Of a stretch of DNA of 61,883 nucleotides, positions 1 through 46,570 are shown piece by piece. The notes beneath the pieces were generated by a model that worked only from the letters and a program-made list of their open reading frames with translations, was not told the DNA's origin and ran no database searches. The stretch comes from Spirochaetota bacterium (GTDB lineage: Bacteria > Spirochaetota > Spirochaetia > SPDA01 > B32-G16): positions 1 through 61,883 of the forward strand of contig QNBH01000001.1 of the NCBI GenBank assembly GCA_003645645.1, given 5' to 3'. The position numbers and the translations under genes are program-made. Position 1 is the first letter of the stretch, and each line of letters opens with the position of its first letter.

Positions 1-1
1 C

Positions 2-343
2 ATCAAGGGTTTCCTGTCTAAAAGCGGAGAAATTGACGGGATTTATCTGACCACGGGTAACGGGCCTGTGGGTGTTACTGATGCTTTAAAAGAGTTTGGT
101 TTAGCGGGTAAAAGCAGAATAGTGTGTTTCGATTTCTTTCCCGAGACCGTTAAACTGCTAAAAAGCGGGTTAGTACATGCCACGATCGGCCAGGACCCCT
201 TTAGCCAGGGCTATCAGACGGTTAAGCTCCTCTACGATTACATAATCGACAAAAAAGAACCGATGCAGAAGGTAGTACACACCAGAATAGAAATAGGATT
301 ACGAGAAAACATAGATTTTCTTGTGACTAAAAATCACCCTTAA
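2..343 (+). CDS. C-terminal part of a PBP1 (LacI/RbsB-fold) sugar-binding-domain protein; the 5' end lies outside the window
   Basis: The frame is open from the window edge (IKGFLSKSGEIDGIYLTTGNGPVGVTDALKEF...). HATIGQDPFSQGYQTVKLLYDYI resembles the ligand-binding core of LacI-type regulators and sugar-binding proteins. Confidence 0.5.
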   Translation: MKGFLSKSGEIDGIYLTTGNGPVGVTDALKEFGLAGKSRIVCFDFFPETVKLLKSGLVHATIGQDPFSQGYQTVKLLYDYIIDKKEPMQKVVHTRIEIGLRENIDFLVTKNHP

Positions 344-523
344 ACCTGATAATACCGTAATTAAAAGGAGGTGATGTCCTATGAGATAGAAAACCAATAC
401 GATACAATTTCTTAAATGCATTCGACGGAGGAAAAATATAAAAGCCGGACGAATGCAAAGAACCCGTGGATGAATATATTTTCATCCGATTTTCAAAAAA
501 TAATTAATGGAGGCTTTAAATCA

Positions 524-1573
524 ATGAAAAGTAAATTTTTTGTTCTCTTTCTTATCATTACAATGATAGGGGTGGTATTTGGAGAAGGTAAAGCCGAAAA
601 AGAAACTCGCGTAGAGCAGGCAGCTAAAGAAAAGTACGTGTTCTACTTTCCTTCTCATATCGGAGGAGCCGATCCCAACATGCAGGTGTGGCAGAAGGCA
701 ATCGAGGATTTCCAGGAACTTTTTCCGGTTGAAATAAAATACTTTGCAACAACCGAGTTCAGCATCGAATCCTTTAAGCAGTACATCGAAACATCTATAG
801 CAGCAAAGCCGGACGGTATTATGGTTCCTGTTGTAGACCCAGTGGCAGTTGAAGAGCCTTTACGAAGAGCTATTAAAAACGGTATTCCTGTGATGGCCTT
901 AAATATTCCTGACCCCCGGCCATTTAATGAGAAAATCCCCTATCTGGGTTTTGTTGGTGAAGACAGCATAGCCACAGGCAGGGCATTAGCAAGGAGAGTG
1001 CTTCAGGAGTTCGCTCCAGCAAAACCAAAACATGCTGCGGCTGCTGTAGCCCTTATAGGTCATGTTTCTCTCGAACAGAGAGCACAGGGTTTCATAGAAG
1101 AGATGAAGGCAAACGGAGTAAAGGCGGAAAGAGTTGCTACAGATTTACCCGAAACTCACGCTAAGGAAACAATGACCGCCTATATCATGAAAAATCCCGA
1201 TGTAGATGTAATTTTCTCAACCGCAACTTACAATACTCCATGGATGTGGAGTGTAATGACTCAACTTAATAAGACAAAAGAGATAACGCTCGTCTCTGTA
1301 GATGCAAGTCCCACTTCTCTGGAAGCTGTAGCCCAGTGGGAAAATCCCGATCCAAATGTACCAAAAGCCGTAGCCACCCACTCTCAGAACATGTTCATGC
1401 AAGTATGGTATGCAGCAGAAGCATTATACATCTATAACCGATATGGCATGGAACCACCGTCTATAATCGCAACCGGGCCGATTGTGATCGACAGCAGCAA
1501 CGTAGAAACCTGGCAGATGATCGTAAAAGGGTTCTTCGGGGATAAAGGTTACAATGACAATATACTATGGTAA
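524..1573 (+). CDS. ABC transporter periplasmic substrate-binding protein (PBP type I, sugar-like)
   Basis: The track ORF is 416..1573. I place the start at ATG 524, preceded by GGAGG (509-513) and followed by the signal-like MKSKFFVLFLIITMIGVVFG. The PBP1 fold is suggested by DGIMVPVVDP...IPVMALN. Confidence 0.75.
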   Translation: MKSKFFVLFLIITMIGVVFGEGKAEKETRVEQAAKEKYVFYFPSHIGGADPNMQVWQKAIEDFQELFPVEIKYFATTEFSIESFKQYIETSIAAKPDGIMVPVVDPVAVEEPLRRAIKNGIPVMALNIPDPRPFNEKIPYLGFVGEDSIATGRALARRVLQEFAPAKPKHAAAAVALIGHVSLEQRAQGFIEEMKANGVKAERVATDLPETHAKETMTAYIMKNPDVDVIFSTATYNTPWMWSVMTQLNKTKEITLVSVDASPTSLEAVAQWENPDPNVPKAVATHSQNMFMQVWYAAEALYIYNRYGMEPPSIIATGPIVIDSSNVETWQMIVKGFFGDKGYNDNILW

Positions 1574-1599
1574 TATGTTGATATTGGATTGACCAAGTG

Positions 1600-1783
1600 T
1601 TTACTACGAAAGAAAGCCACAACCTATGGTGGTGGTCCACCGGTCGGAAGACCGGTGGAGAGACGGGCTTAAGCCCGTCTACTTTCTTTCAGAGTATACA
1701 ACCACCTAAGTAATTTCTGCAAAGCAGAAATTACTTAGCCCTTGCAGGGCTTGCAAAGCCTTAGGCTTTGCCGGTGGTTGTTT
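1600..1783 (+). repeat. Copy 1 of a roughly 185-nt structured intergenic element made of two tandem four-way-junction-like domains
   Basis: Closing helix GAAAGAAAG (1608-1616) pairs with CTTTCTTTC (1682-1690) and encloses three hairpins. Second closing helix ACAACCACC (1698-1706) pairs with GGTGGTTGT (1773-1781) and encloses a 14-bp hairpin (1707-1737), GCCC/GGGC, and GCAAAGCC/GGCTTTGC. A near-identical second copy lies at 8044-8231. Confidence 0.8.
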
Positions 1784-1828
1784 ACAGTCTCGGTCTGGAT
1801 GTTTCCGGCTCCTGATCGAGACTGTTTT
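1784..1828 (+). other. Intercistronic stem-loop followed by a T-run, between the SBP and permease genes
   Basis: ACAGTCTCG (1784-1792) pairs with CGAGACTGT (1817-1825), followed by TTTT. The loop is 24 nt, so this is not a canonical intrinsic terminator. It may be an attenuating or mRNA-stabilising structure. Confidence 0.3.
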
Positions 1829-1856
1829 AATCAATTTTATCAAGAGGCTTGTAAAC

Positions 1857-2834
1857 ATGCTTAAGTATTTGAGTAAGTTTTTATGGTTAGGTGCAATTGT
1901 CGGTATCTTGTTGTTAATTATCATATTCGGGGTTGCTTCCGGGGGGAGATGGCTTAATGTTTTGAATCTCCAGGTGGTTACAAGAACAGCGGCACAACTG
2001 GGGATCGTGGCAATCGGACAGACTCTGGTTTTGATTACCGGCAGGTTTGATCTTTCTGTGGGGTCGATCTTCGGAGTCTGTGGAGTTGTTTTTGTTCCTC
2101 TGGTTGCTGCATTCGGTATATGGCCCGGATTCATTCTGGCCCTACTTTGCGGCGGTGCCATTGGGCTGCTTAACGGTACATTGACAGAAAAATTGCGAGT
2201 ACCTTCTTTAATTGCCACACTCGGTAATTTATGGATTTTCAGAGGTCTTGTTTTCTACATCACCGGAGGGTTTGCCAATGCCATCCCCAGGGATTTAAGA
2301 GATCATTACCTTATTACTATTCTGGGAGGTAAGTTTGCCGGAGGCTGGAATAATTTGATTTTCTGGTGGATTATAATAACTGCTGTTATGATTCTGGTTT
2401 TAAACCGCACAAAATTCGGTAATGCAGCCTTTGCAGTTGGGACGGATGAGAGAAGTGCCCTTTCCAGAGGAGTCTCTCCTGCAACTGTAAGAATGGCGGC
2501 ATTTATTATCTGCGGCTTCCTTGCAGCTTTTTCCGGAATCGGTACTGTTGCTGATATGAAAACAGGCTCCACCACCCTCGGGCAGAGTATGGAGCTGGAA
2601 AGTATAGCCGGATCGGTAATTGGCGGCACTTCGCTCCTTGGTGGTGTAGGTTCTATCTTTGGAGCAGGATTGGGTGCTTTGTTACTCTCTTTCATCAGAA
2701 GCGGATTGATTCTCGCAGGAGCTCCTCCATACTGGTTTGTAAGCTTCGTGGGTGTTGTCCTTATAGGGGCTGTGCTGTTTAATACAAAGATGAGAGAACA
2801 TATATTGAAAAGAATAGAGAGGTCAGCCTTATGA
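1857..2834 (+). CDS. ABC transporter permease (RbsC/branched-sugar type)
   Basis: 325 aa, multi-pass hydrophobic. Motifs include TAAQLGIVAIGQTLVLITGRFDLSVGS and GGTSLLGGVGSIFGAGLGALLL, typical of the BPD_transp_2 family. Confidence 0.85.
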   Translation: MLKYLSKFLWLGAIVGILLLIIIFGVASGGRWLNVLNLQVVTRTAAQLGIVAIGQTLVLITGRFDLSVGSIFGVCGVVFVPLVAAFGIWPGFILALLCGGAIGLLNGTLTEKLRVPSLIATLGNLWIFRGLVFYITGGFANAIPRDLRDHYLITILGGKFAGGWNNLIFWWIIITAVMILVLNRTKFGNAAFAVGTDERSALSRGVSPATVRMAAFIICGFLAAFSGIGTVADMKTGSTTLGQSMELESIAGSVIGGTSLLGGVGSIFGAGLGALLLSFIRSGLILAGAPPYWFVSFVGVVLIGAVLFNTKMREHILKRIERSAL

Positions 2835-3625
2835 GTAATAAAGGTAATGATAAACCATTGGTTAAAATGGTCGATATAGAGAAAAGGTTCGGCTCCGTAC
2901 AGGCGCTGAAGGGGGTGGATTTTGAGGTATATCCCGGAGAGGTTGTTGGTCTGGTGGGAGACAACGGAGCGGGGAAATCCACTCTGATGAGAATCCTTAC
3001 CGGTATTTACCATCCAAGCAGGGGAGATATTTACTTCCGTGGGGAAAAGGTTTTAATCGACTCTCCCAAGAAAGCCAGAGATATGGGTATCGAGGTAGTT
3101 CACCAGGGGTTTGGCTTGCTCGATTCAATGACGGTAGCCAGAAATGTATTTCTCGCCTCAGAACCTTTGATTAAAGTGGGCCCTGTTAAGTTGCTGGATA
3201 TGGAAAAGATGAACATGGAAACCAGAAAGGTGATAGAACATGCCGGTATCAGAACAGGGGTCGAACCCGATTCAATAGTCCAGTATCTTTCCGGTGGACA
3301 GAGGCAGGCTGTTAAAATCGGAAGAGCGATATATTTTAAAGCTGAAGTAGTCATTCTTGACGAACCGACGATAGCCCTCTCTATCCGAGAAAAAGATCAC
3401 GTTGGTGAGCTGGTTAATGATTTAAGAAAGCATAATGTAGCGGTAATTTATATTTCACATGATTTAGAGGAAGTATACGAGTTAGCCGACAAAATTACCA
3501 TTCTGGATGTTGGGGAAAAACTGGCAGAATATAAGAGAGGTGAAGTTTCGCTCGAGGTTCTATACGATATTATTCGCGAAGGAAGAATCCCCCCGGATAT
3601 CAAACAGCAAAATAAAAAGGAATGA
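2831..3625 (+). CDS. ABC transporter ATP-binding protein (single NBD)
   Basis: Walker A GDNGAGKST, signature LSGGQRQ, Walker B VVILDEPT. The start overlaps the permease stop (ATGA). Confidence 0.9.
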   Translation: MSNKGNDKPLVKMVDIEKRFGSVQALKGVDFEVYPGEVVGLVGDNGAGKSTLMRILTGIYHPSRGDIYFRGEKVLIDSPKKARDMGIEVVHQGFGLLDSMTVARNVFLASEPLIKVGPVKLLDMEKMNMETRKVIEHAGIRTGVEPDSIVQYLSGGQRQAVKIGRAIYFKAEVVILDEPTIALSIREKDHVGELVNDLRKHNVAVIYISHDLEEVYELADKITILDVGEKLAEYKRGEVSLEVLYDIIREGRIPPDIKQQNKKE

Positions 3626-4902
3626 ATGTTATGACATCCAGAGAAAGAGTAAATGTTGCTCTGGAGCATAAAGTGCCCGATAAGGTTCCCCTCGATTTGG
3701 GGGGCAGTACGGTTACTGGTATGCATGTAAGTTCCGTATATAAATTACGGCAGGCTCTGGGACTTGACCCACCCCGGACACCAGTTAAAGTTATAGAGCC
3801 ATATCAGATGCTGGGAGAGATAGGGCTTGACCTGGTTGAAGCTCTTCATGTAGATGTAGCAGGCATCTTTCCTCTAAAAACGATATTCGGATTTAAAAAC
3901 GAAGGATGGAAAGAATGGACTCTGTTTGATGGTACTCCAGTTCTGGTTCCCGAGAAATTCAACACGATTCCGGATGAAAATGAAGACATTCTAATGTATC
4001 CTGAAGGCGATACTTGCGTTCCCCCCAGCGCCCGGATGCCAAAGGGTGGTTATTATTTTGATTCTATCATAAGACAGATACCTATCGACGAAACCAATCT
4101 AAATCCAAAAGATAATATGGAAGAGTTTGTTCTTTTATCCGATAAAGAACTTAAACATTACAAAGATCGCTCCGATGAGCTGTACAACAACACCGACAAG
4201 GCTATCCTCATAAACTTCGGAGGATTGAGTTTCGGGGATATTGCCAACGTCCCCGCTCCATGGCTTAAAAACCCAAAAGGAATAAGGGATATAGAAGAGT
4301 GGTATATAAGCCTTATAATGCGAAAAGATTACATAAAAGAGGTTTTCGAGTATCAATGTGATATCGGTTTGGCTAACCTGAAAAAACTCCACGAAGTTGT
4401 AGGAGATAAGATTTCTATAATTTACATATCTGGAACAGACTTTGGAATGCAGACAGGTCCTTTTTTATCAGTGGAAACTTACTGTGAATTGTTTAAACCC
4501 TACCACAAAAAGATAAACGAATGGATTCACAGTAACACAAACTGGTACACCTTTATCCACTCCTGTGGTTCAATAGTACAAATAATACCTGAAATAATAG
4601 ATGCAGGATTCGATATCTTAAATCCTGTACAGATATCCGCTGCAAAAATGGATCCCCACACACTTAAAGAGAGCTTCGGAGACTGCATTACCTTCTGGGG
4701 AGGAGGAATAGATACTCAGAAAACCCTTCCCTTTGGCAACGTTGATGAAGTCAGAAAGCAGGTTAAAGAAATGGTTAGAATATTCGGTAAGGGTGGAGGA
4801 TTCGTATTTAATTCTGTTCATAATATACAGGCGAATGTCCCTATAGAGAATCTTATAGCATTATACGAGGCTTTTGAACAATCCCGTTCTTATAGAAATT
4901 AA
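3622..4902 (+). CDS. UroD-fold / MT2 (MtaA-CmuA-like) methyltransferase-family protein, paralog 1
   Basis: HSCGS motif (FIHSCGSIVQIIPEIIDAGFDILNPVQ) and ...FWGGGIDTQ...GGGFVFNSVHNIQANVP. An alternative start is ATG 3631 (MTSRERV), which parallels paralog 2 (MTSKERV). Confidence 0.7.
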   Translation: MNVMTSRERVNVALEHKVPDKVPLDLGGSTVTGMHVSSVYKLRQALGLDPPRTPVKVIEPYQMLGEIGLDLVEALHVDVAGIFPLKTIFGFKNEGWKEWTLFDGTPVLVPEKFNTIPDENEDILMYPEGDTCVPPSARMPKGGYYFDSIIRQIPIDETNLNPKDNMEEFVLLSDKELKHYKDRSDELYNNTDKAILINFGGLSFGDIANVPAPWLKNPKGIRDIEEWYISLIMRKDYIKEVFEYQCDIGLANLKKLHEVVGDKISIIYISGTDFGMQTGPFLSVETYCELFKPYHKKINEWIHSNTNWYTFIHSCGSIVQIIPEIIDAGFDILNPVQISAAKMDPHTLKESFGDCITFWGGGIDTQKTLPFGNVDEVRKQVKEMVRIFGKGGGFVFNSVHNIQANVPIENLIALYEAFEQSRSYRN

Positions 4903-4918
4903 AAAGCAGGAGTTTTTA

Positions 4919-6019
4919 ATGACATCAAAAGAAAGGGTAATTGAGGCTATAAATCTTCGTGAGCCGGATACTGTTCCTGTATTTATAACTATTACACCGC
5001 AAGTAGCGGAAGAATTAAGTAAACATCTGGGAATAAAGGAATATACTATTGCAGATTCACCTCTTTCACAAAATCGAATTTCCTTTCACGAACTAATGAT
5101 CAAACTTGGAAACGACATTGTGGGAATAGGTGCCTGTTCTCCCAATAATGAGCCGACCAGAGAAATAGATAAAGGAATTTTTCGAAACGAATGGAAAGTT
5201 AAATACAGAAAAATTGGTTATTATATGGAGATGATTGAGCATCCCCTTTCCCATGCGGAGACTGCAGCAGATATAGAGAATTTCCATTTCCCGGAGCCGA
5301 AAGCCGATGGACGTTTCACTCTGGCAAAACAAGTAGCAGAGAAATACGGAAGCAAATACGCTATCTGTGGGGATCTGGAGTGCACGGTATTCGAGACAAG
5401 CTGGTATTTAACAGGAATGGAGAAGTTTCTAATGGATCTGTTCATGGAGAAAGAGTATGTTTTTACTCTCATGGATAGAGTGATGGAGTATAGTATCGGG
5501 GCAGGACTGGAACTGGTAAGGCTCGGTTCCGATATAATATGGGTTGGAGATGATATGGGAACACAGCATGGAATGCTGATATCTCCTGAAATGTGGAGAA
5601 AGCACCTCAAGGGAAGGTTAAAAAATGTTATCGCTGAATTAAAGAAGGAAAACCCTGACATTAAAATAGCTTACCATTCGTGTGGTTCCTATTTTCCTAT
5701 TATCCCGGAATTGATAGAAATCGGGGTTGATATACTCAACGCTTTACAACCAAGGGCGAAAGATATGGAATTGGCTAGACTTAAAGGAATGTTTGGTAAC
5801 AGGGCTTCCTTTTTCGGGGGGATGGATATCCAGGATATAATTCCTTTCGGAACCATGGAGGAAATTGAAAAAGAGGTAAAACGTGTTATACATACTGCGG
5901 CAAAGGGAGGGGGGTACATTCTTGCCGGTGCCCATAATATACAACCGGATACTTCCGTAGAGAAGCTTATGAAAATATTTGAGGTTGCAAAAAGTTATGG
6001 CAAATATCCCATTGCATGA
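4919..6019 (+). CDS. UroD-fold / MT2 methyltransferase-family protein, paralog 2
   Basis: The track ORF is 4874..6019. I choose ATG 4919 after AGGAG (4908-4912). Motifs include YHSCGSYFPIIPELIEIGVDILNALQ and GGGYILAGAHNIQPDT. Confidence 0.7.
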   Translation: MTSKERVIEAINLREPDTVPVFITITPQVAEELSKHLGIKEYTIADSPLSQNRISFHELMIKLGNDIVGIGACSPNNEPTREIDKGIFRNEWKVKYRKIGYYMEMIEHPLSHAETAADIENFHFPEPKADGRFTLAKQVAEKYGSKYAICGDLECTVFETSWYLTGMEKFLMDLFMEKEYVFTLMDRVMEYSIGAGLELVRLGSDIIWVGDDMGTQHGMLISPEMWRKHLKGRLKNVIAELKKENPDIKIAYHSCGSYFPIIPELIEIGVDILNALQPRAKDMELARLKGMFGNRASFFGGMDIQDIIPFGTMEEIEKEVKRVIHTAAKGGGYILAGAHNIQPDTSVEKLMKIFEVAKSYGKYPIA

Positions 6020-6145
6020 AAGTTATCCACTTCTTTCCCTTAAAATCTGTAAAAACACCAGATCAACTATCCGGCGCCTTCTGCTTTCCCGGGCTTCATG
6101 AAACCATGTTTTTTGCAAGTTTTTTTCTTAAAACGTGATATATTT

Positions 6146-6634
6146 ATGATTAATATGAAAGAGAAGTTAAAAGAGTTTAAGGTAAAAGGTATTGCTCTGG
6201 ATGAAGACTCACAGATGCCCTTTATAATTCTTCAGGATGTGAGAAGAGAGAATGTTCTGCCAATAGACATAGGCCCCTTCGAAGCCAGTGCAATAATCGT
6301 AGAGATGGAAGGGGTTCATGTTCCCATGCCACTTACCCACGACCTTATATCACAGTTCTTCAAACGCCATAAGTTTCATTTAAAGTATGTAGAGATTTAC
6401 GGAGTGGCCAATAATTCATACCTTGCCAGGTTGCACTATAAAAGAGGCATCAATTCTTACACAATGGAAGTACGACCAAGCGATGGGATTGCACTGGCCA
6501 TACGGCTGGGTTCACCCATATATATTCAGAACTGGATAATACAAAAAATGTTAAACGAACCATACATTCTGGAGAGGGTCGATTCCAAATCCCACGAAAT
6601 TCTCTATCTGGGTGCACAGAGCACAAGTTTATAA
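6146..6634 (+). CDS. Bifunctional nuclease (BFN/DUF151) domain protein
   Basis: The sequence PFIILQDVRRENVLPIDIGPFEASAIIVEMEGVHVPMPLTHDL is the typical BFN-domain core. The start is ambiguous (6098, 6146 or 6155). Confidence 0.6.
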   Translation: MINMKEKLKEFKVKGIALDEDSQMPFIILQDVRRENVLPIDIGPFEASAIIVEMEGVHVPMPLTHDLISQFFKRHKFHLKYVEIYGVANNSYLARLHYKRGINSYTMEVRPSDGIALAIRLGSPIYIQNWIIQKMLNEPYILERVDSKSHEILYLGAQSTSL

Positions 6635-6639
6635 AAAAG

Positions 6640-8010
6640 TTATAATATTTTTTTTACCAGCGAAAACCTGTCTCTGTAAGGAGGGTATCTTAAGTTTACT
6701 TCCCATCTTCCGTATCTCTTAATTACGGAACGCCTATATGAGAATGTATCGAAGGTTGCCTTCCCATGGTAACGACCCATCCCACTTTCTCCTACTCCGC
6801 CGAAAGGTAGATTTATATTATCAAAGTGGATCAAAGTATCATTCATACATCCACCCCCCGAGCTGGTAAGCTTAAGTACCGTTTCCTGTTTCTCTTTATT
6901 TCGGGAGAAAAAATAGAGAGACAACGGAGCAGGTAAAGAGTTTATAAAAGAGATCGCCTCCTCAATGGAATCGTATTCGCTAATGGGAAGAATCGGGCCG
7001 AAGATCTCCTCTTTCATAATTTTATCTTCCGGCCGTACATCTTCTATAAGTGTAGGCTCTATAAAGAGCTCTTCTCTGTTAACTCTGCCGCCATATATAA
7101 TTTTACCGTTTTCCAGGAAAGAGCAGAGCCTGTCAAAATGCCTTTCATCAACAATTCTACCGTAATCTGGACTATTTTCGGGCAATTCTCCGAAAAATGT
7201 AACAATGCTTTTTTTCAAGCCTTCTATGAGCTCCCCTTTTACGGCTCTATCAACAAGGATGTAATCAGGCGCTATGCAGGTCTGTCCTGCATTGATAAAC
7301 TTTCCCCAGACAATTCTCCTGCTTGCAGATGTAATATCCGCTTCATTATCGACAATACAGGGACTCTTCCCGCCCAACTCCAGGGTAACTGGAGTAAAAT
7401 GCTCTACCGCCTTTTCCATCACCCTTTTACCTGCCTCCTTTCCTCCTGTGAAGAATATATAATCGAACTTCTCATCCAAAATATTCTTCTTAACTTCCTC
7501 GCTTGGCTCGAGAAAACACACATGTTCCGGCTTAAAAGCCTCTTCCGCTATCATCTTCATAATCCGGGAAGTTTCAGGCACAGAACCAGACGGTTTCAGA
7601 ACAACACAGTTACCTGCAGAAATCGCCCCGATAAGGGGAATGAATGACAGATTGAAGGGGTAGTTCCACGGGGAAATCAGAAGAACGACACCGTAAGGCA
7701 TGGAATAGATAAAACTCTTAGAGAAGACATGGATAAGGGGGGTTTTTGCTTTTTCTGGTTTTACCCACCTCGGAAGATTTTTAATATGAAAGTTGAGTTC
7801 TTTTTTAAACTGGTATATCTCTGTAACATAGCCCTCGAAGGGAGATTTACCCAATTCGCTCTTAAATGCATCTAAAAGTGCATCCTCTCTATCTTTTACT
7901 ACTTTTTTCAGTTGCTTTAAACTATTGAGACGAAAGGAGAGTTCAAGTGTTTTCCCACTCTTAAAAAATTTTCTCTGATCCCTTACAACATCCGATAAGT
8001 TGATGTTCAT
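6640..8010 (-). CDS. Aldehyde dehydrogenase, ALDH3 (fatty/aromatic aldehyde dehydrogenase) family
   Basis: ELGGKSPCIVD, GQTCIAPDYILV and EEIFGPILPI...FGGVGESGMGRYHGK are closely colinear with class-3 ALDHs. The start is set at ATG 8010 (MNINLSD, GAGGGG upstream). The track extension to 8109 runs into the repeat element. Confidence 0.85.
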   Translation of the reverse strand: MNINLSDVVRDQRKFFKSGKTLELSFRLNSLKQLKKVVKDREDALLDAFKSELGKSPFEGYVTEIYQFKKELNFHIKNLPRWVKPEKAKTPLIHVFSKSFIYSMPYGVVLLISPWNYPFNLSFIPLIGAISAGNCVVLKPSGSVPETSRIMKMIAEEAFKPEHVCFLEPSEEVKKNILDEKFDYIFFTGGKEAGKRVMEKAVEHFTPVTLELGGKSPCIVDNEADITSASRRIVWGKFINAGQTCIAPDYILVDRAVKGELIEGLKKSIVTFFGELPENSPDYGRIVDERHFDRLCSFLENGKIIYGGRVNREELFIEPTLIEDVRPEDKIMKEEIFGPILPISEYDSIEEAISFINSLPAPLSLYFFSRNKEKQETVLKLTSSGGGCMNDTLIHFDNINLPFGGVGESGMGRYHGKATFDTFSYRRSVIKRYGRWEVNLRYPPYRDRFSLVKKIL

Positions 8011-8043
8011 AGTTATGCCCCTCAGACGAGGACTTATTTTTAC

Positions 8044-8231
8044 TTTACTACGAAAGAAAGCTTTGTACCTATGGCGGTTGTCCTTAAGTCTTCTAGCTGG
8101 GGGACACACTTCAGGCTATGCCCGCTGGCTTTCTTTCGGAACAAACAACCACCTAAGTAGTTTCCGCTTAAGCGGAAACTACTTAGCCCTTACAGGGCTC
8201 GCAAAGCCTTAGGCTTTGCCGGTGGTTGTTT
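8044..8231 (+). repeat. Copy 2 of the structured intergenic element
   Basis: Same orientation and the same closing helices (8052-8061 with 8128-8137; 8145-8153 with 8221-8229). The long hairpin at 8154-8185 carries two compensatory pair changes relative to copy 1. Confidence 0.8.
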
Positions 8232-8233
8232 GC

Positions 8234-8262
8234 TTGAGATACAATTTCTCCTGATATATAAT
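8234..8262 (+). promoter_or_regulatory. Candidate sigma70-type promoter for the FGGY kinase operon
   Basis: TTGAGA (8234-8239), a 17-nt spacer, then a perfect TATAAT (8257-8262), 43 nt upstream of ATG 8305. Confidence 0.4.
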
Positions 8263-8304
8263 GTTATCTGACAATTAAGTCAATGAGCTTTATAGGTAAA
8301 ACAG

Positions 8305-9906
8305 ATGAGCGAAAAAGAACCCTATGTACTTGCTGTTGATATCGGAACATCCGGGGTAAAAACAGCAATAGTCTCCCTCAACAATGGAATTATTGGATGG
8401 GAGTTTCAGAAGACCAGGCTTATAATTCTCGACCGCGGAGGAGCAGAACAGGACCCCCTCGAATGGTGGGAAGCCTTTATCACTACCTCGAGGAGGCTGG
8501 TTAAAAGGTTCCCCCCTCAAGCAGAAAAACTAGCCCTTATAAGCTGTACAACTCAATGGTCGGGTACCGTACCGGTTGACAGAGAGGGAAATCCACTTAT
8601 GAATGCCATCATCTGGATGGATTCGAGGGGGGCACCGATAGTTAGGGAAATTACGCGTGGGAAAATCAACCTTCAGGGCTATGATATTTTTAAACTGTTA
8701 AGTTGGATTAGATCGACGGGAGGAATACCCGGCCATGCCGGAAAAGACTCCATAGCTCACATTCTTTATATAAAAGAAAAGCACCCCCACATCTACAGAG
8801 ACGTTTACAAGTTTCTCGAACCCAAAGATTACATCAATATGAAGCTTACGGGTAACTTCTTCGCTACATTCGATTCCATTGCGCTCCACTGGATAACGGA
8901 TAACAGGAATATAGGGAATGTCCATTATAAGGATAATCTTCTAAAATTTGTAAAAATAGATAAAGAAAAACTGCCGGAATTAAGAAGAGCTGTTGATATA
9001 ACAGGTAAAATAAAAAAAGAAGCGGCCGGGGAACTTGGAATACCCGAAGGTATTGAGGTTATAGGTGGAACACCCGATGTACATTCGGCCTGCATTGGTT
9101 CGGGCGCTGTGAAGGATTACGAACCTCATCTTTACATTGGAACATCGTCCTGGATAAGCTGTCATGTTCCTTTTAAAAAAACAGATTTACTCCACAATAT
9201 GGCAACCCTACCATCGGCAATACCCGATAGATACATATTGGCGGATGAGCAGGAAACCGCAGGCGCATGTCTCGATTTCATTTACGATATACTGCTCTCC
9301 GGTAATGACTCTAATAAGAAAGCATCCCCTGGCGAAAATAAGTATGAGATACTCGAAGCTCTTGCACAAAGGGCAGAAGCTGGCAGCGGAGGCGTAATAT
9401 TTACCCCCTGGCTCTTTGGAGAGAGAACTCCTGTTGAAAACAGCAATCTAAGGTCCTGCTTCTATAATGTTTCTCTCAATACAACGAGAGAACAATTTGT
9501 AAGAGCGGTGTATGAAGGGGTGGCTTTTAACACAAAATGGCTTCTTTATTATGTAGAAAAATTCGTAAAGAAGAAGTTTGCCCATCTGAATATTATAGGA
9601 GGTGGTGCATATTCAGACTTCTGGTGCCAGCTCTTTGCAGACATCCTGGGCTGTACAATAAGACAGATTGAGCAACCGGGACTTGCCAATCTGAGAGGAG
9701 CCGCATTCCTCGGATTCATCGCACGCCGAGTTATTGCTGCTGATAGGATACATGAATATGTGCCTGTTAAAAATATTTTTACCCCGAATCAGGAAAAAGA
9801 GAAACTTTACAAAGAAATGTTTAAAACCTTTCTCGATATTTACAGGAGAAACAGAAAAATATTCAACCGCATAAATATTAAAAGTTTTACCGGAGGAGTA
9901 AATTGA
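8305..9906 (+). CDS. FGGY-family carbohydrate kinase (xylulokinase-like)
   Basis: N-terminal [16 protein letters not shown]; the FGGY N- and C-domain pattern ([14 protein letters not shown]...[20 protein letters not shown]). Confidence 0.8.
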
Positions 9907-11420
9907 AAAAAATTAGAACTAAAAGGACAATTACACAAAAGCTCCTGGGCGGAGGCATGAAGGCTCTCAAACTACTGCCCCATGTACAGAAAAAAATCAA
10001 CGAAGAGTACGGGAATATACTGGAAGAACTTGAAAAGATGGCAAAACCATATAATAAAAATCTTCCTCTTGTAAAATCGATACCCGAACAGGGATGGGAG
10101 AAAAGAGAAATTATAGATCTTATGGAGGGTCTTAACAGAAGAGAGGAGAATAGATGGAAAGAAGGATATGTCTCGGGGGCAGTGTACCACGGAGGTGAAG
10201 AGCATCTCAACTTTCTAAACGGGATCTATGCTCTAAACTCTCAAAGCAATCCTCTCCATTCAGATCTATGGCCCAGCACAATTAAATACGAATCAGAGAT
10301 TGTGGCAATGACGGCCGAGATGTTCCATGCCAATGATATCAAAAATGACAATCCGGTTTTCGGCGGCAGGGTATGCGGAAATGTTACATCAGGAGGTACC
10401 GAGAGCATCCTTCTAGCAATGAAAACCTACCGTGACTGGGGGAGAAAGGAGAGAGGAATAAAGAAGCCGGAGATGGTAGTCCCTGTTACAGCCCACGCTG
10501 CATTCGAAAAGGCGGGACAATATTTCAATATCAAAGTGGTTAAAATACCGGTAGATAAAGATTACAAGGCTGATACGGAAAAAGCAAAGAGTGCGATAAC
10601 AAGAAACACTGTTGTTCTGGTGGGGTCGGCACCGGGTTTCCCTCACGGTATTATAGATCCTCTGCCGGAACTTTCGGAGATAGCACTAAAGAGAAAAATC
10701 GGTTTTCATGTAGATGCCTGTTTGGGAGGGTTTATTCTTCCATGGGCCGAAAAACTCGGATATTCTGTTCCTGTCTTTGATTTCAGACTTCCCGGTGTAA
10801 CCTCCATTTCAGCCGATACTCACAAATACGGTTATGCGGCAAAGGGCAGTTCAGTCATCCTCTACCGGGGAGAGGCATTGAGGCGTTATCAGTATTTCAA
10901 AACCACAGAATGGCCGGGTGGGCTTTATTTCTCTCCTACATTTGCCGGATCCAGACCGGGGGGATTGAGCGCGGTTTGCTGGGCCTCCCTGGTGTCAATG
11001 GGTAAGAAAGGATATACAGAGGCAACTGATAAAATTCTTAAAACCGCCGGAATTATTAAAGAAGGAATTAAATCCATATCGGAGTTATTCATATTCGGTG
11101 ACCCCCTCTGGGTAATAGCATTCGGTTCCGCCAACCTTGACATCTATAGAATACTCGACTATATGAATGAGAAAAAGTGGAGTTTAAACGGGCTCCACTA
11201 TCCGGAAGCCGTCCATATCTGCGTAACCTTAAGACATACACTCCCCGGAGTTCCCGAAAGGTTTATAGCTGATTTGAAAGATGCTGTAAAACATGTAAGG
11301 GGAAATCCCCGGGATAAGGGTAAAATGGCACCAATCTACGGAATGGCCGCCGGTTTACCCGACAGAAGCATGATAGCAGAACTCATGGATCAATACATGG
11401 ATCTGCTGTACAGCTTTTGA
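9903..11420 (+). CDS. Sphingosine-1-phosphate-lyase-like PLP-dependent enzyme (group II decarboxylase fold)
   Basis: [34 protein letters not shown]...[18 protein letters not shown] closely follows the S1P-lyase active-site block, including the PLP lysine in THKYG. A TTG at 9903 overlaps the kinase stop; an alternative start is ATG 9957. Confidence 0.75.
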
Positions 11421-32994: not shown

Positions 32995-33092
32995 GTATCT
33001 ATCTCCTTAAAAAATTTAATCCGCCCTGTTAGGGCCGGTAATTTTCATTGTTTTGGTTATCCCATGGGCTCATGGGAACTCCCTGGAAAATT

Positions 33093-38237: not shown

Positions 38238-38310
38238 GGGGGATTAGCTCAATTGGCAGAGCGATAGGTTCGCAATCTATAGGTCAGGGGTTCAAATCCC
38301 CTATCCTCCA
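38238..38310 (+). tRNA. tRNA-Ala (anticodon CGC)
   Basis: Manual cloverleaf. Acceptor GGGGGAT/ATCCTCC with the G3:U70 Ala identity pair. D-stem GCTC/GAGC. Anticodon stem ATAGG/TCTAT with loop TTCGCAA. T-arm AGGGG-TTCAAAT-CCCCT. Discriminator A. CCA is not encoded. Confidence 0.9.
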
Positions 38311-42982: not shown

Positions 42983-43179
42983 ATAAGATAGTCTACATAA
43001 CCCTAGGGACAACCAAAACAATGAAAATTAACGCACCGAACAGGGCGAATTAAATTTTCGGAAGAGAAAACCGTGAAAAGTTTAAATCAGCGGACGATGC
43101 CCTTGATTTCGCCATCAAAAGAGAAGAGGAGTCTTACGGCTTTTATACTGATATCGCATCAAGGGCAAAGAGCCCCGGC

Positions 43180-43527
43180 ATGCAAAAGGTCTTTAAACAG
43201 TTCGCCCGGGAAGAGGAAGCCCATAAAAGAAAGCTTCTTAATGTCAAGGAAGGAAAGAAATTAAAAGAAGCAGAGAAGAAAATTACAGATTTAAAAATAA
43301 GCGATTATCTTGTAGAAAGACAACCTTCACCCGATATGGACTATCAGGATGCCCTTATTCTTGCCATGCAAAAGGAGAAAGCTTCCTGCAGGCTATACAA
43401 CGTACTGGCCGAATCAGCCACAAATAAGGATCTGCAGAATATTTTTCTATCTCTTGCACAGGAAGCGGCAAAGCACAAATTGAGATTCGAGATAGAATAC
43501 GACCAGGAAATCCTTAAGAAAAACTAG
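43180..43527 (+). CDS. Rubrerythrin/ferritin-like domain protein; the N-terminus is unresolved
   Basis: FAREEEAHKRKL and LAQEAAKHKLRFEIEYD are ferritin-like ExxH pairs. The homologous frame extends upstream to 43054 with no canonical start, and it is in frame with ATG 43021 across a TAA at 43051-43053. Confidence 0.6.
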   Translation: MQKVFKQFAREEEAHKRKLLNVKEGKKLKEAEKKITDLKISDYLVERQPSPDMDYQDALILAMQKEKASCRLYNVLAESATNKDLQNIFLSLAQEAAKHKLRFEIEYDQEILKKN

Positions 43528-45562: not shown

Positions 45563-46570
45563 CTACTCTACTCTTTCCTTTACCACCCGGCCGAGTTGCG
45601 ATTTGGGAAGAGAAAACCTGTAAAAAAGTCCCAGTGGATCGGGAATCTGCATCATAAGTTTCTCTATATCCTCTTCGCTCAACTCTGTCTCTCTGTCGGT
45701 CATTCCGTACACCGAGGCAAGGGCACTCAGCATGGATGCCCCCTGTTCTGTAACAGATGCCGTCGGTCCCATGCACCCCCGGCAGGGCATATTCGCAGCG
45801 GTACAAACCGCCCCGCATCCCGCCCTTGTAGCAGGTCCTAGGCATATAATCCCCTGTTCGAGAAAACATTTCTCCTCGTCAAACGCTATCTCTTGAATCC
45901 TGTACAGCCTGTCCACCTTGATCTCTCCGCTTCGTTTCCTCTCGCACTCATCGCACAGCGTCTTCTCCGATGCAATGATGGATCCTTTGGGTGGCAGGGG
46001 TTTTCCCTCTTCCACAAACTCTTTCACTACTGTGAGAATTTTATTATTGATATCACTGGTCGGAGGACAGGCGGGAACGTAATAGTCCACATCGACAATA
46101 TCATCCAGGGCATATACCTCGTCGTAGAACCGGGGCAGGGTGAGCTCATGGCCTTCTTTATCTAAAGATTTCTCCTCGGGTAAGGTGCCATCGGGATTTA
46201 CCGTGGAAAAGGTTTCTTTATAAACCTTCTTAAATATTGCAATTTTATCTGTTACGTTGGCCAATCCCGGAATACCCCCCATGTGCGCACAGGCGCCATA
46301 AGCAATGAGAATCTGACACTTATCCCTCATTATATGGGCAAACTCTTCGTTGTCCGAGTTTCTGACTGCACCGTGGTAAAATCCTATGGTTATGGATTTA
46401 TCGGGCATTTTTTTGAGATCGTCATATTTTACATCGAGAAGCGTAGGTGAGAAAACCAAATCGGCTACGGAGAGCAGGGTGAAGAGCTCTTCGTTGAAGT
46501 TGACAATGGCAATATCACAGCCTACGCATGAAGCACCCCTTTTAAGTGCAATCTTTATCTTCTCTGCCAT
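45563..46570 (-). CDS. mvhG: [NiFe] hydrogenase small subunit, Mvh-type
   Basis: ASCVGCDIAIVNF, GACAHMGGIPGLAN, and a C-terminal Cys-rich cluster region (CDECERKR..., CLGPATRAGCGAVCTAANMPCRGCMGP). No Tat signal is present. Confidence 0.88.
   Translation of the reverse strand: MAEKIKIALKRGASCVGCDIAIVNFNEELFTLLSVADLVFSPTLLDVKYDDLKKMPDKSITIGFYHGAVRNSDNEEFAHIMRDKCQILIAYGACAHMGGIPGLANVTDKIAIFKKVYKETFSTVNPDGTLPEEKSLDKEGHELTLPRFYDEVYALDDIVDVDYYVPACPPTSDINNKILTVVKEFVEEGKPLPPKGSIIASEKTLCDECERKRSGEIKVDRLYRIQEIAFDEEKCFLEQGIICLGPATRAGCGAVCTAANMPCRGCMGPTASVTEQGASMLSALASVYGMTDRETELSEEDIEKLMMQIPDPLGLFYRFSLPKSQLGRVVKERVE

Follow-up and report, generated by a model that had tools for sequence, protein, structure and literature searches.

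Two copies of a folded, non-coding element were analyzed in a stretch of 61,883 nucleotides (nt) of DNA from a Spirochaetota bacterium (contig QNBH01000001.1, positions 1 to 61,883 of the forward strand), here called the window. Both copies most probably belong to a lineage-specific non-coding mobile DNA repeat, a PATE-like non-autonomous derivative of the IS200/IS605 family. The repeat family would be new, although its kind is known and fairly ordinary, and it would not represent a new structured RNA. Directly observed were the dispersal of the repeat, its exact ends without terminal inverted repeats, its target motif and the empty orthologous sites; homology of its right end to tnpA-bearing IS200 elements and a substitution pattern of the transposable-element type were likewise observed directly.

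The initial annotation had placed the element at 1600-1783 and 8044-8231. Both copies were recovered there, and every helix was found at the position given; the ends were corrected to 1600-1785 (+ strand, from TTTAC 1600-1604 to TTTAC 1781-1785) for copy 1, which reads TTTAC-TACGAAAGAAAGCC...GCCGGTGGTTG-TTTAC, and to 8044-8233 (+ strand) for copy 2. Copy 1 is flanked by two + strand genes, one for a Peripla_BP_4 solute-binding protein (SBP), which stops at 1573, and one for a BPD_transp_2 permease, which starts at 1857. Copy 2 separates two divergent genes, for an aldehyde dehydrogenase (- strand, start at 8010) and for an FGGY kinase (+ strand, start at 8305). The two copies share 77% identity overall and 91% in module 2, the 3' half of the element, and a third copy was not found elsewhere within the 61.9-kb window. 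The minimum-free-energy fold of copy 1 was estimated at -129.1 kcal/mol (z-score -14.3, none of 200 shuffled sequences being as good) and that of copy 2 at -94.3 kcal/mol (z-score -8.5). In copy 1 the fold contains a 10-bp hairpin TCCACCGGTC/GACCGGTGGA, an 8-bp hairpin AGACGGGC/GCCCGTCT and further hairpins of 14, 5 and 8 bp. The left-end hairpin CCACCGG...CCGGTGG starts 32 nt after the left TTTAC and the right-end helix stops 4 nt before the terminus. With a unit of 186-190 nt (241 nt in one variant) and no spanning open reading frame (ORF), the element is too short for a transposase gene. Its features are as follows.

1600-1604, + strand: left-junction TTTAC of copy 1, the putative target motif (transposon-adjacent motif) after which the element was inserted
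1605-1785, + strand: copy 1, subfamily A, 186 nt including the left TTTAC, 85-96% identical to about 20 metagenome copies
1607-1691, + strand: left-end domain (module 1) as predicted by folding, a closing helix with three hairpins; both subfamilies keep the closing helix
1608-1616 with 1682-1690, + strand: closing helix of module 1, GAAAGAAAG pairing with CTTTCTTTC
1636-1659, + strand: left-end (central module 1) hairpin TCCACCGGTC-GGAA-GACCGGTGGA, a candidate transposase-binding palindrome
1698-1781, + strand: right-end domain (module 2), closing helix ACAACCACC/GGTGGTTGT with hairpins of 14, 5 and 8 bp
1698-1706 with 1773-1781, + strand: closing helix of module 2, ACAACCACC pairing with GGTGGTTGT
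1764-1781, + strand: 18-mer GGCTTTGCCGGTGGTTGT, common to the right ends of Y1 transposase-bearing IS200-type elements
1781-1785, + strand: right-end TTTAC of copy 1, the putative right cleavage motif (transposon-encoded motif)
8044-8048, + strand: left-junction TTTAC of copy 2
8049-8233, + strand: copy 2, subfamily B, 190 nt including the left TTTAC, 93-96% identical to about 10 metagenome copies

A metagenome scan with the exact 18-mer GGCTTTGCCGGTGGTTGT from the 3' end of the repeat, the figures of which are lower bounds among the matches listed, returned at least 120 loci, and the repeat itself was present in 37 of these, all from JGI sample Ga0180301 and on about 36 different contigs. The copies comprised a 186-nt subfamily like copy 1 (85-96% identical), a 190-nt subfamily like copy 2 (93-96%), a 241-nt variant and several 5'-truncated or internally deleted copies. 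All of them lie between ORFs and beside unrelated genes; 12 were oriented like both flanking genes, 6 opposite to both, 5 lay between divergent genes and 1 between convergent genes. The copies were single, and an inverted partner was not found nearby, either in the window or in the metagenome loci. BLAST comparison of the element with plasmids and phages gave no match, and viral contigs scanned with the 5' 18-mer, the 3' 18-mer and a right-end pattern with TTTAC yielded nothing. The looser pattern ACAACCACC-N50-80-GGTGGTTGT matched viral contigs 28 times, which is about the number estimated for chance, and none of these matches resembled module 2, so that they were discarded. The nearest named relatives are labelled Candidatus Vecturithrix and Spirochaetota, and the family appears lineage-restricted and recently expanded, from uncultured anaerobic-digester or sediment bacteria. 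As to the 241-nt variant (L037, L046, L059, L095 and L107, e.g., L107:2044-2284), module 2 contains an additional branched hairpin of 55 nt, placed after hairpin 2 and before hairpin 3. The 8-nt direct repeat CAGGGCTT bounds this hairpin, an arrangement suggestive of templated duplication or of a nested insertion as the mode of growth.

The ends of the element are sharp. In 32 full copies similarity starts exactly at TTTAC-TACGAAAG and stops exactly at GGTGGTTG-TTTAC, the flanks being unrelated. The left TTTAC carries a point change in only 3 of the 32 full copies and is preceded by T in 23 of them, while the right-end motif is TTTGC, TTAAC or TCTAC in 5 of 32 and otherwise TTTAC. A pyrimidine follows the right TTTAC in 30 of 32 copies, and the other flank positions are unconstrained. 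Terminal inverted repeats were not found: the first 30 nt agreed with the reverse complement of the last 30 nt at 6 of 30 positions, with a local alignment score equal to the shuffle mean. We infer that the left TTTAC is the target and not a duplicated site. The initial annotation had held that many copies in both orientations, with terminal inverted repeats and target-site duplications, would indicate a MITE and speak against a structured RNA; the many copies and both orientations were indeed observed, and MITE-type terminal inverted repeats and variable target duplications were not. The right-end motif TTTGC recurs in several copies of subfamily B, namely at 8229-8233 in copy 2 of the window and in L035, L072 (6375-6564) and L122, and copies ending in this way may be immobile if TTTAC is the right cleavage motif.

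Mobility was observed as presence or absence of the repeat at an orthologous site, the comparison being one between related species and not between strains. Permease homologues with 88-89% identity were found in seven loci (L155-L161) of relatives, the labels of which are Candidatus Vecturithrix sp., Spirochaetota bacterium and uncultured Spirochaetaceae, plus four further assemblies. In all seven the spacer between the SBP and permease genes is about 100-115 nt long as compared to 283 nt in the window, the difference corresponding to the length of the element, and the repeat is absent from the whole of each locus. The initial annotation had noted a stem-loop with a T-run behind copy 1. This structure exists, but it does not belong to the element, since it is present in relatives that lack the repeat:

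1785-1830, + strand: host intercistronic hairpin CAGTCTCGG...CGAGACTG with a T-run (TTTTAA), outside the repeat

In the empty spacers of L155-L161 the hairpin is kept as CAGTCTCGG...CCGAGACTG with changes that preserve pairing. Its retention in relatives without the repeat marks it as an older host feature, directly 5' of which the element was inserted, and it probably acts for this operon as a native stabiliser or attenuator between the cistrons.

Downstream of copy 2 a host feature was likewise distinguished from the repeat:

8234-8262, + strand: sigma-70-like promoter TTGAGA-N17-TATAAT with 11 of 12 consensus matches, belonging to the host kinase gene and outside the repeat

The sequence at 8234-8262 is unrelated to the flanks of the other copies, and its position directly 3' of copy 2 places this copy upstream of the kinase promoter and outside the kinase leader. 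The closest homologue of the FGGY kinase downstream of copy 2 was only 64% identical. Contigs from other samples with the permease or kinase gene of the window were 99.8-99.9% identical to it and are therefore uninformative on covariation. Among strains (window 8011-8304 as compared to L029, L030 and L034), copy 2 showed four single-base differences in about 190 nt, one of them a C-to-T change that creates a G.T pair in hairpin 3, while the genome around it differs by about 0.1-0.2%; these numbers are small.

The right end of the repeat links it to IS200 elements. In L063, L142 and L113 a small ORF is followed 60-90 nt downstream by the 18-mer, which has the same orientation and is positioned a few bases from where the loci cease to resemble each other. 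The ORFs of L063 and L142 match Pfam Y1_Tnp (PF01797, "Transposase IS200 like") over its full length with E values of 1.6e-37 and 6.5e-38, respectively. In these three loci a terminal hairpin, CCACCGG-CTTTG-CCGGTGG-TTGT, has the 18-mer as its 3' arm and tail, and the same hairpin follows tnpA in the tnpA-bearing viral contigs L163 and L164, in the latter of which it also precedes tnpA. Moreover, the element copy in L100 reads AAAGCCACCGGCTTTGCCGGTGGTTGT, 27 consecutive bases of which are identical to L063, and L090, from another metagenome, ends in CCACCGGCTTTGCCGGTGGTTGTTTAC with the terminal pentamer of the element. Position, orientation, the 27-nt extension and recurrence at both IS200 ends make a chance match very unlikely. 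The conserved central hairpin of module 1 (TCCACCGGTC-GAAA-GACCGGTGGA) has the CCACCGG/CCGGTGG stem of the end hairpins of tnpA-carrying IS200 elements, and the presence of the same stem at both ends of the element would be expected if one transposase binds both. In most copies TTA replaces ACC in the 5' arm of the right-end hairpin (CCACC to CCTTA), which destroys the local 5' arm, so that the 3' arm pairs instead with the distant ACAACCACC as the closing helix of module 2. The IS200 elements themselves (L063, L142, L113, L163 and L164) form a widespread tnpA-only subgroup with the end hairpin CC(A/C)CCGG-CT(T/C)TG-CCGG(T/G)GG, right-end tails past the hairpin foot that read TTGTGACAC, TTGTTCAG, TGTCTGAC or TCGGTGAC, and a TTGACA-type promoter after the left-end hairpin.

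Pairing was analyzed in an alignment of 25 full-length copies. Paired states were found in 97.4% of cells as compared to 36-53% when the partners were slid by 1-3 columns, and eight pairs had changed on both sides. The helices of module 2 were paired at the level of 98-99%, with the proviso that the search pattern had fixed the 3' 18 bases. Both A-T to G-C double changes reported in the 14-bp hairpin are real in the alignment of copy 1 with copy 2. For module 1 the initial annotation had described a conserved closing helix around a replaced interior. Both subfamilies retain this helix, in which one G-C pair has switched to A-U, but the interior is not freely variable: it appeared so because the two subfamilies differ there, and the central left-end hairpin is kept in subfamily B as well, with covariation (columns 38-46 with 57-65). 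Most of the covariation lies between the two subfamilies and hence reflects few events. The variant pair states were divided according to whether they were shared between copies:

shared by at least two copies: 4 compensatory (both sides changed, still Watson-Crick), 9 G.T, 0 A.C and 1 other non-pair
private to one copy: 2 compensatory, 11 G.T (10 on one side), 9 A.C and 20 other non-pairs

Private substitution rates were similar for paired and unpaired columns (1.7% and 2.4%, respectively). Together with the split between shared and private states, this indicates that structure was kept along the multiplying lineages, specifically on the + strand, and not in resident copies. Such a pattern characterises a transposable element that depends on folding of its top strand for movement, as opposed to an RNA under selection at each locus. 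When folded as RNA or DNA, the + and - strands were nearly equal, the + strand being slightly more stable in 18-20 of the 25 copies, which is not decisive.

These properties agree in large part with those of known PATEs, which lack terminal inverted repeats, carry near-terminal palindromes related to IS605-type ends, make no target duplication, are too short for a transposase and have their 5' palindrome farther from the end than the 3' one (PMC3119063). PATEs are known from Haloquadratum walsbyi (PMC3119063) and were seen in Geobacillus stearothermophilus (PMC10055086), and such transposase-less derivatives are mobilised in trans (PMC3119063, PMC10055086). Like them, the repeat lacks terminal inverted repeats, and the palindromes close to its two ends are similar to those in transposase-bearing members. 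Its 5' junction bears a short, constant targeting oligonucleotide, and the end-to-palindrome distance is longer on the 5' than on the 3' side; the repeat is likewise too short for a protein and multi-copy, with homogeneous subfamilies of more than 90% identity. Among its differences, it is bacterial and related to the tnpA-only IS200 group and not to the IS1341/TnpB type. It differs further in that each of its ends consists of a closing helix around three hairpins, that most copies have a long-range helix in place of the canonical right-end hairpin, that one and the same pentamer serves as left target motif and as right terminal motif and that its parent element and transposase were not found in the window and the sampled loci. 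Elements of the IS200/IS605 family are excised as single-stranded circles and inserted 3' of a specific tetra- or pentanucleotide, and their TnpA recognises sub-terminal imperfect palindromes and not inverted repeats (PMC3597680). With IS200/IS608, which are moved by a Y1 HUH enzyme through single-strand 'peel and paste' (PMC3597680), the repeat shares insertion at a specific tetra- or pentanucleotide, sub-terminal palindromes, the strand-specific substitution signature and an 18-27-nt match to an IS200-type right end. IS200/IS608 elements are about 700-2000 nt long, whereas the repeat has 186-190 nt, no transposase gene and no detectable orientation bias with GC skew.

Following this, we propose that a Y1 (HUH) transposase TnpA encoded elsewhere in the genome would bind the folded sub-terminal palindromes of the + (top) strand in single-stranded DNA and cut after the left-flanking TTTAC and after the terminal TTTAC of the element, which would release a single-stranded circle to be reinserted 3' of another (T)TTTAC followed by a pyrimidine. 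Both the identity of this transposase and the single-strand chemistry are conjectured from the likeness to IS200. The helices would then be structures of top-strand DNA that stay intact where copies still propagate, and not RNA selected at each locus, and attenuation of read-through or stabilisation of mRNA between the SBP and permease genes, like any other effect on the host, would be a by-product. There is also a small chance that more is involved, in that transcripts of module 2 extending into the 3' flank serve a nuclease acting in trans as a guide-RNA scaffold, or that the four-way-junction ends mark an IS200 subgroup whose transposase reads branched DNA.

Several observations weigh against an IS200/IS605 derivative. 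The main gap is that tnpA was found neither in the window nor in the sampled Ga0180301 loci: tblastn with two IS200 TnpA sequences gave none in the whole window or in these loci, and Pfam detected no transposase in the 30 window ORFs, out of 52, that it covered. The IS200 match came from the query 18-mer itself and extended to 27 nt in one copy only (L100), and in most copies the canonical right-end hairpin is disrupted and replaced by the long-range helix around three extra hairpins, a structure that is a putative TnpA substrate. The identical TTTAC at both ends would fit equally well if a highly specific target had been duplicated over 5 bp; under either model one motif would be present at an empty site, and the relatives with empty sites are too distant to give the exact pre-insertion sequence. 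Local GC skew in the orientation of the element was positive for 18 and negative for 17 copies and thus without bias. The studied IS200/IS605 members are reported to target the lagging-strand template (PMC3597680); such an orientation bias is a tendency of the members studied and not a defining feature. Moreover, the 21-mer CTTAGGCTTTGCCGGTGGTTG from the 3' end was not found in 185,579 species-representative genomes. The truncated or one-ended copies in L059, L065, L146, L149 and L151 had no adjoining transposase gene.

The initial annotation had read the conserved helices and the covariation as pointing to selection on structure and had considered a structured RNA, a claim that is not supported in view of the dispersed copies in both orientations, the empty orthologous site and the private changes that break pairs. 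A non-coding or cis-regulatory RNA that stabilises or attenuates mRNA and is kept at each locus by selection on its structure would explain the very stable predicted folds, the 97% pairing with eight covarying pairs across copies and the shared variants, which include G.U, lack A.C and indicate the + strand; it would also suit copy 1, which lies in an operon in sense orientation and in which hairpin 1c followed by a T-rich run scores terminator-like. Nevertheless such an RNA is very unlikely. About 40 copies are dispersed by unrelated genes, six of them antisense to both neighbours and five in divergent spacers; neither orientation nor position with respect to genes is constant, and copy 2 sits upstream of the kinase promoter. 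The ends are constant and sharp at TTTAC, the orthologous site in relatives is empty and the operon there keeps its own hairpin only, private mutations break pairs at the expectation for no selection, and both strands fold nearly equally well. No match to a known RNA was found either, in line with the initial annotation, which had recognised no named RNA family: in the Rfam 15 scan only a genuine tRNA at 38238-38310 reached the gathering score, the best hits in the two repeat regions had E values of 0.025 and 1 and less than half the gathering score, and ARAGORN detected no tRNA-like gene in 1-10000. RNA could also enter by another route, if the repeat were a PATE encoding an omega-RNA-like guide scaffold, with a transcript of module 2 that reaches into the 3' flank and is employed in trans by a TnpB or IscB nuclease, and with TTTAC as the target-adjacent motif. 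PATEs are reported to encode omega RNAs used in trans in many cases (PMC10055086), module 2 is large, conserved and ends 4 nt before the element boundary, and the + strand is the folded strand. We regard this as quite unlikely, since the homologous right ends belong to tnpA-only IS200 elements without tnpB, neither tnpB nor iscB was detected among the 30 of 52 window ORFs scanned with Pfam or beside the truncated copies, and the element has no Rfam match and no promoter-like site inside.

Among mobile repeats, the initial annotation had compared the element with REP/BIME sequences, and this was apt in so far as it is a palindrome-rich mobile intergenic repeat that is probably moved by a Y1 HUH enzyme; the REP/BIME definition does not hold, the ends being IS200-like. 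A REP/BIME-type (REPIN) repeat moved by a RAYT, and not derived from IS200, would likewise be intergenic, palindrome-rich, multi-copy and without terminal inverted repeats, RAYTs are Y1 HUH enzymes related to IS200/IS605 TnpA (PMC3479197), and the REP head GTAG occurs across the left junction as its reverse complement, CTAC. Such repeats, e.g., the malE-malF REPs of Escherichia coli, can sit between cistrons of ABC transporters and may affect mRNA as a side effect, as might the present one. It is unlikely, however, that the element is of this type, as its unit of 186-190 nt with seven helices is five to nine times longer than a GTAG-headed palindrome of 20-40 nt, its copies are single and not in inverted pairs or clusters, GTAG/CTAC recurs neither at the other palindromes nor at the right junction and the right end matches those of ordinary tnpA-carrying IS200 elements. 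In addition, tblastn with IS200 TnpA revealed no RAYT-like gene in the window, a search that is weak for distant RAYTs. With bacterial MITEs (Correia/NEMIS, RUP, ERIC), often mistaken for structured RNAs, the repeat has in common that it is small, non-coding and dispersed with strong predicted structure. A classical MITE, moved by cut-and-paste of a DDE transposase with TTTAC as a 5-bp target-site duplication, would be short, multi-copy and intergenic and would show the same five bases on both sides; it is nonetheless extremely improbable and close to refuted. MITEs have terminal inverted repeats and target duplications set by the DDE enzyme, neither of which the repeat has: the pentamer at the flanks is TTTAC or differs from it by a point mutation in every copy and does not vary with the target, and the right end is homologous to IS200 right ends. 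A reading akin to IS110 bridge RNA was rejected, as the flanks have only TTTAC in common and not a long specific target, and there is no adjacent recombinase gene.

Apart from the repeat, two further features of the region were recorded. A stretch of about 70 nt at 33002-33068 (+ strand) recurs inverted at 43001-43067 (- strand), 9.9 kb apart and 82% identical, with a partial third copy at 45589-45625. At both places its reverse complement leads into a ribosome-binding site and start codon, the genes behind it being molybdopterin-cofactor genes and a rubrerythrin gene at 43180, and it looks like a shared leader or operator; the Rfam scan gave no family at the gathering score there. In the same species, L029:1-2722, which lies about 5-8 kb upstream of the window start, carries genes with phage-integrase and Mu-transposase C-terminal (Y4rL_C) domains at least about 5.4 kb upstream of the first base of the window, which points to another mobile element near this region.

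Taken together, the identification as a PATE-like IS200/IS605 derivative removes a false lead, in that a very stable and covarying "double cloverleaf" would be a mobile DNA repeat and not an RNA class. The comparison of shared with private substitutions and of G.T with A.C mismatches offers a practical test that separates a mobile DNA repeat from an RNA. For annotation, the repeat is to be masked, and the native hairpin at 1785-1824 is the conserved feature of the operon. For transposon biology, the repeat would add a PATE family with a clean TTTAC target and unusually elaborate ends that is tied to the widespread CCACCGG-CTTTG-CCGGTGG subgroup of IS200.

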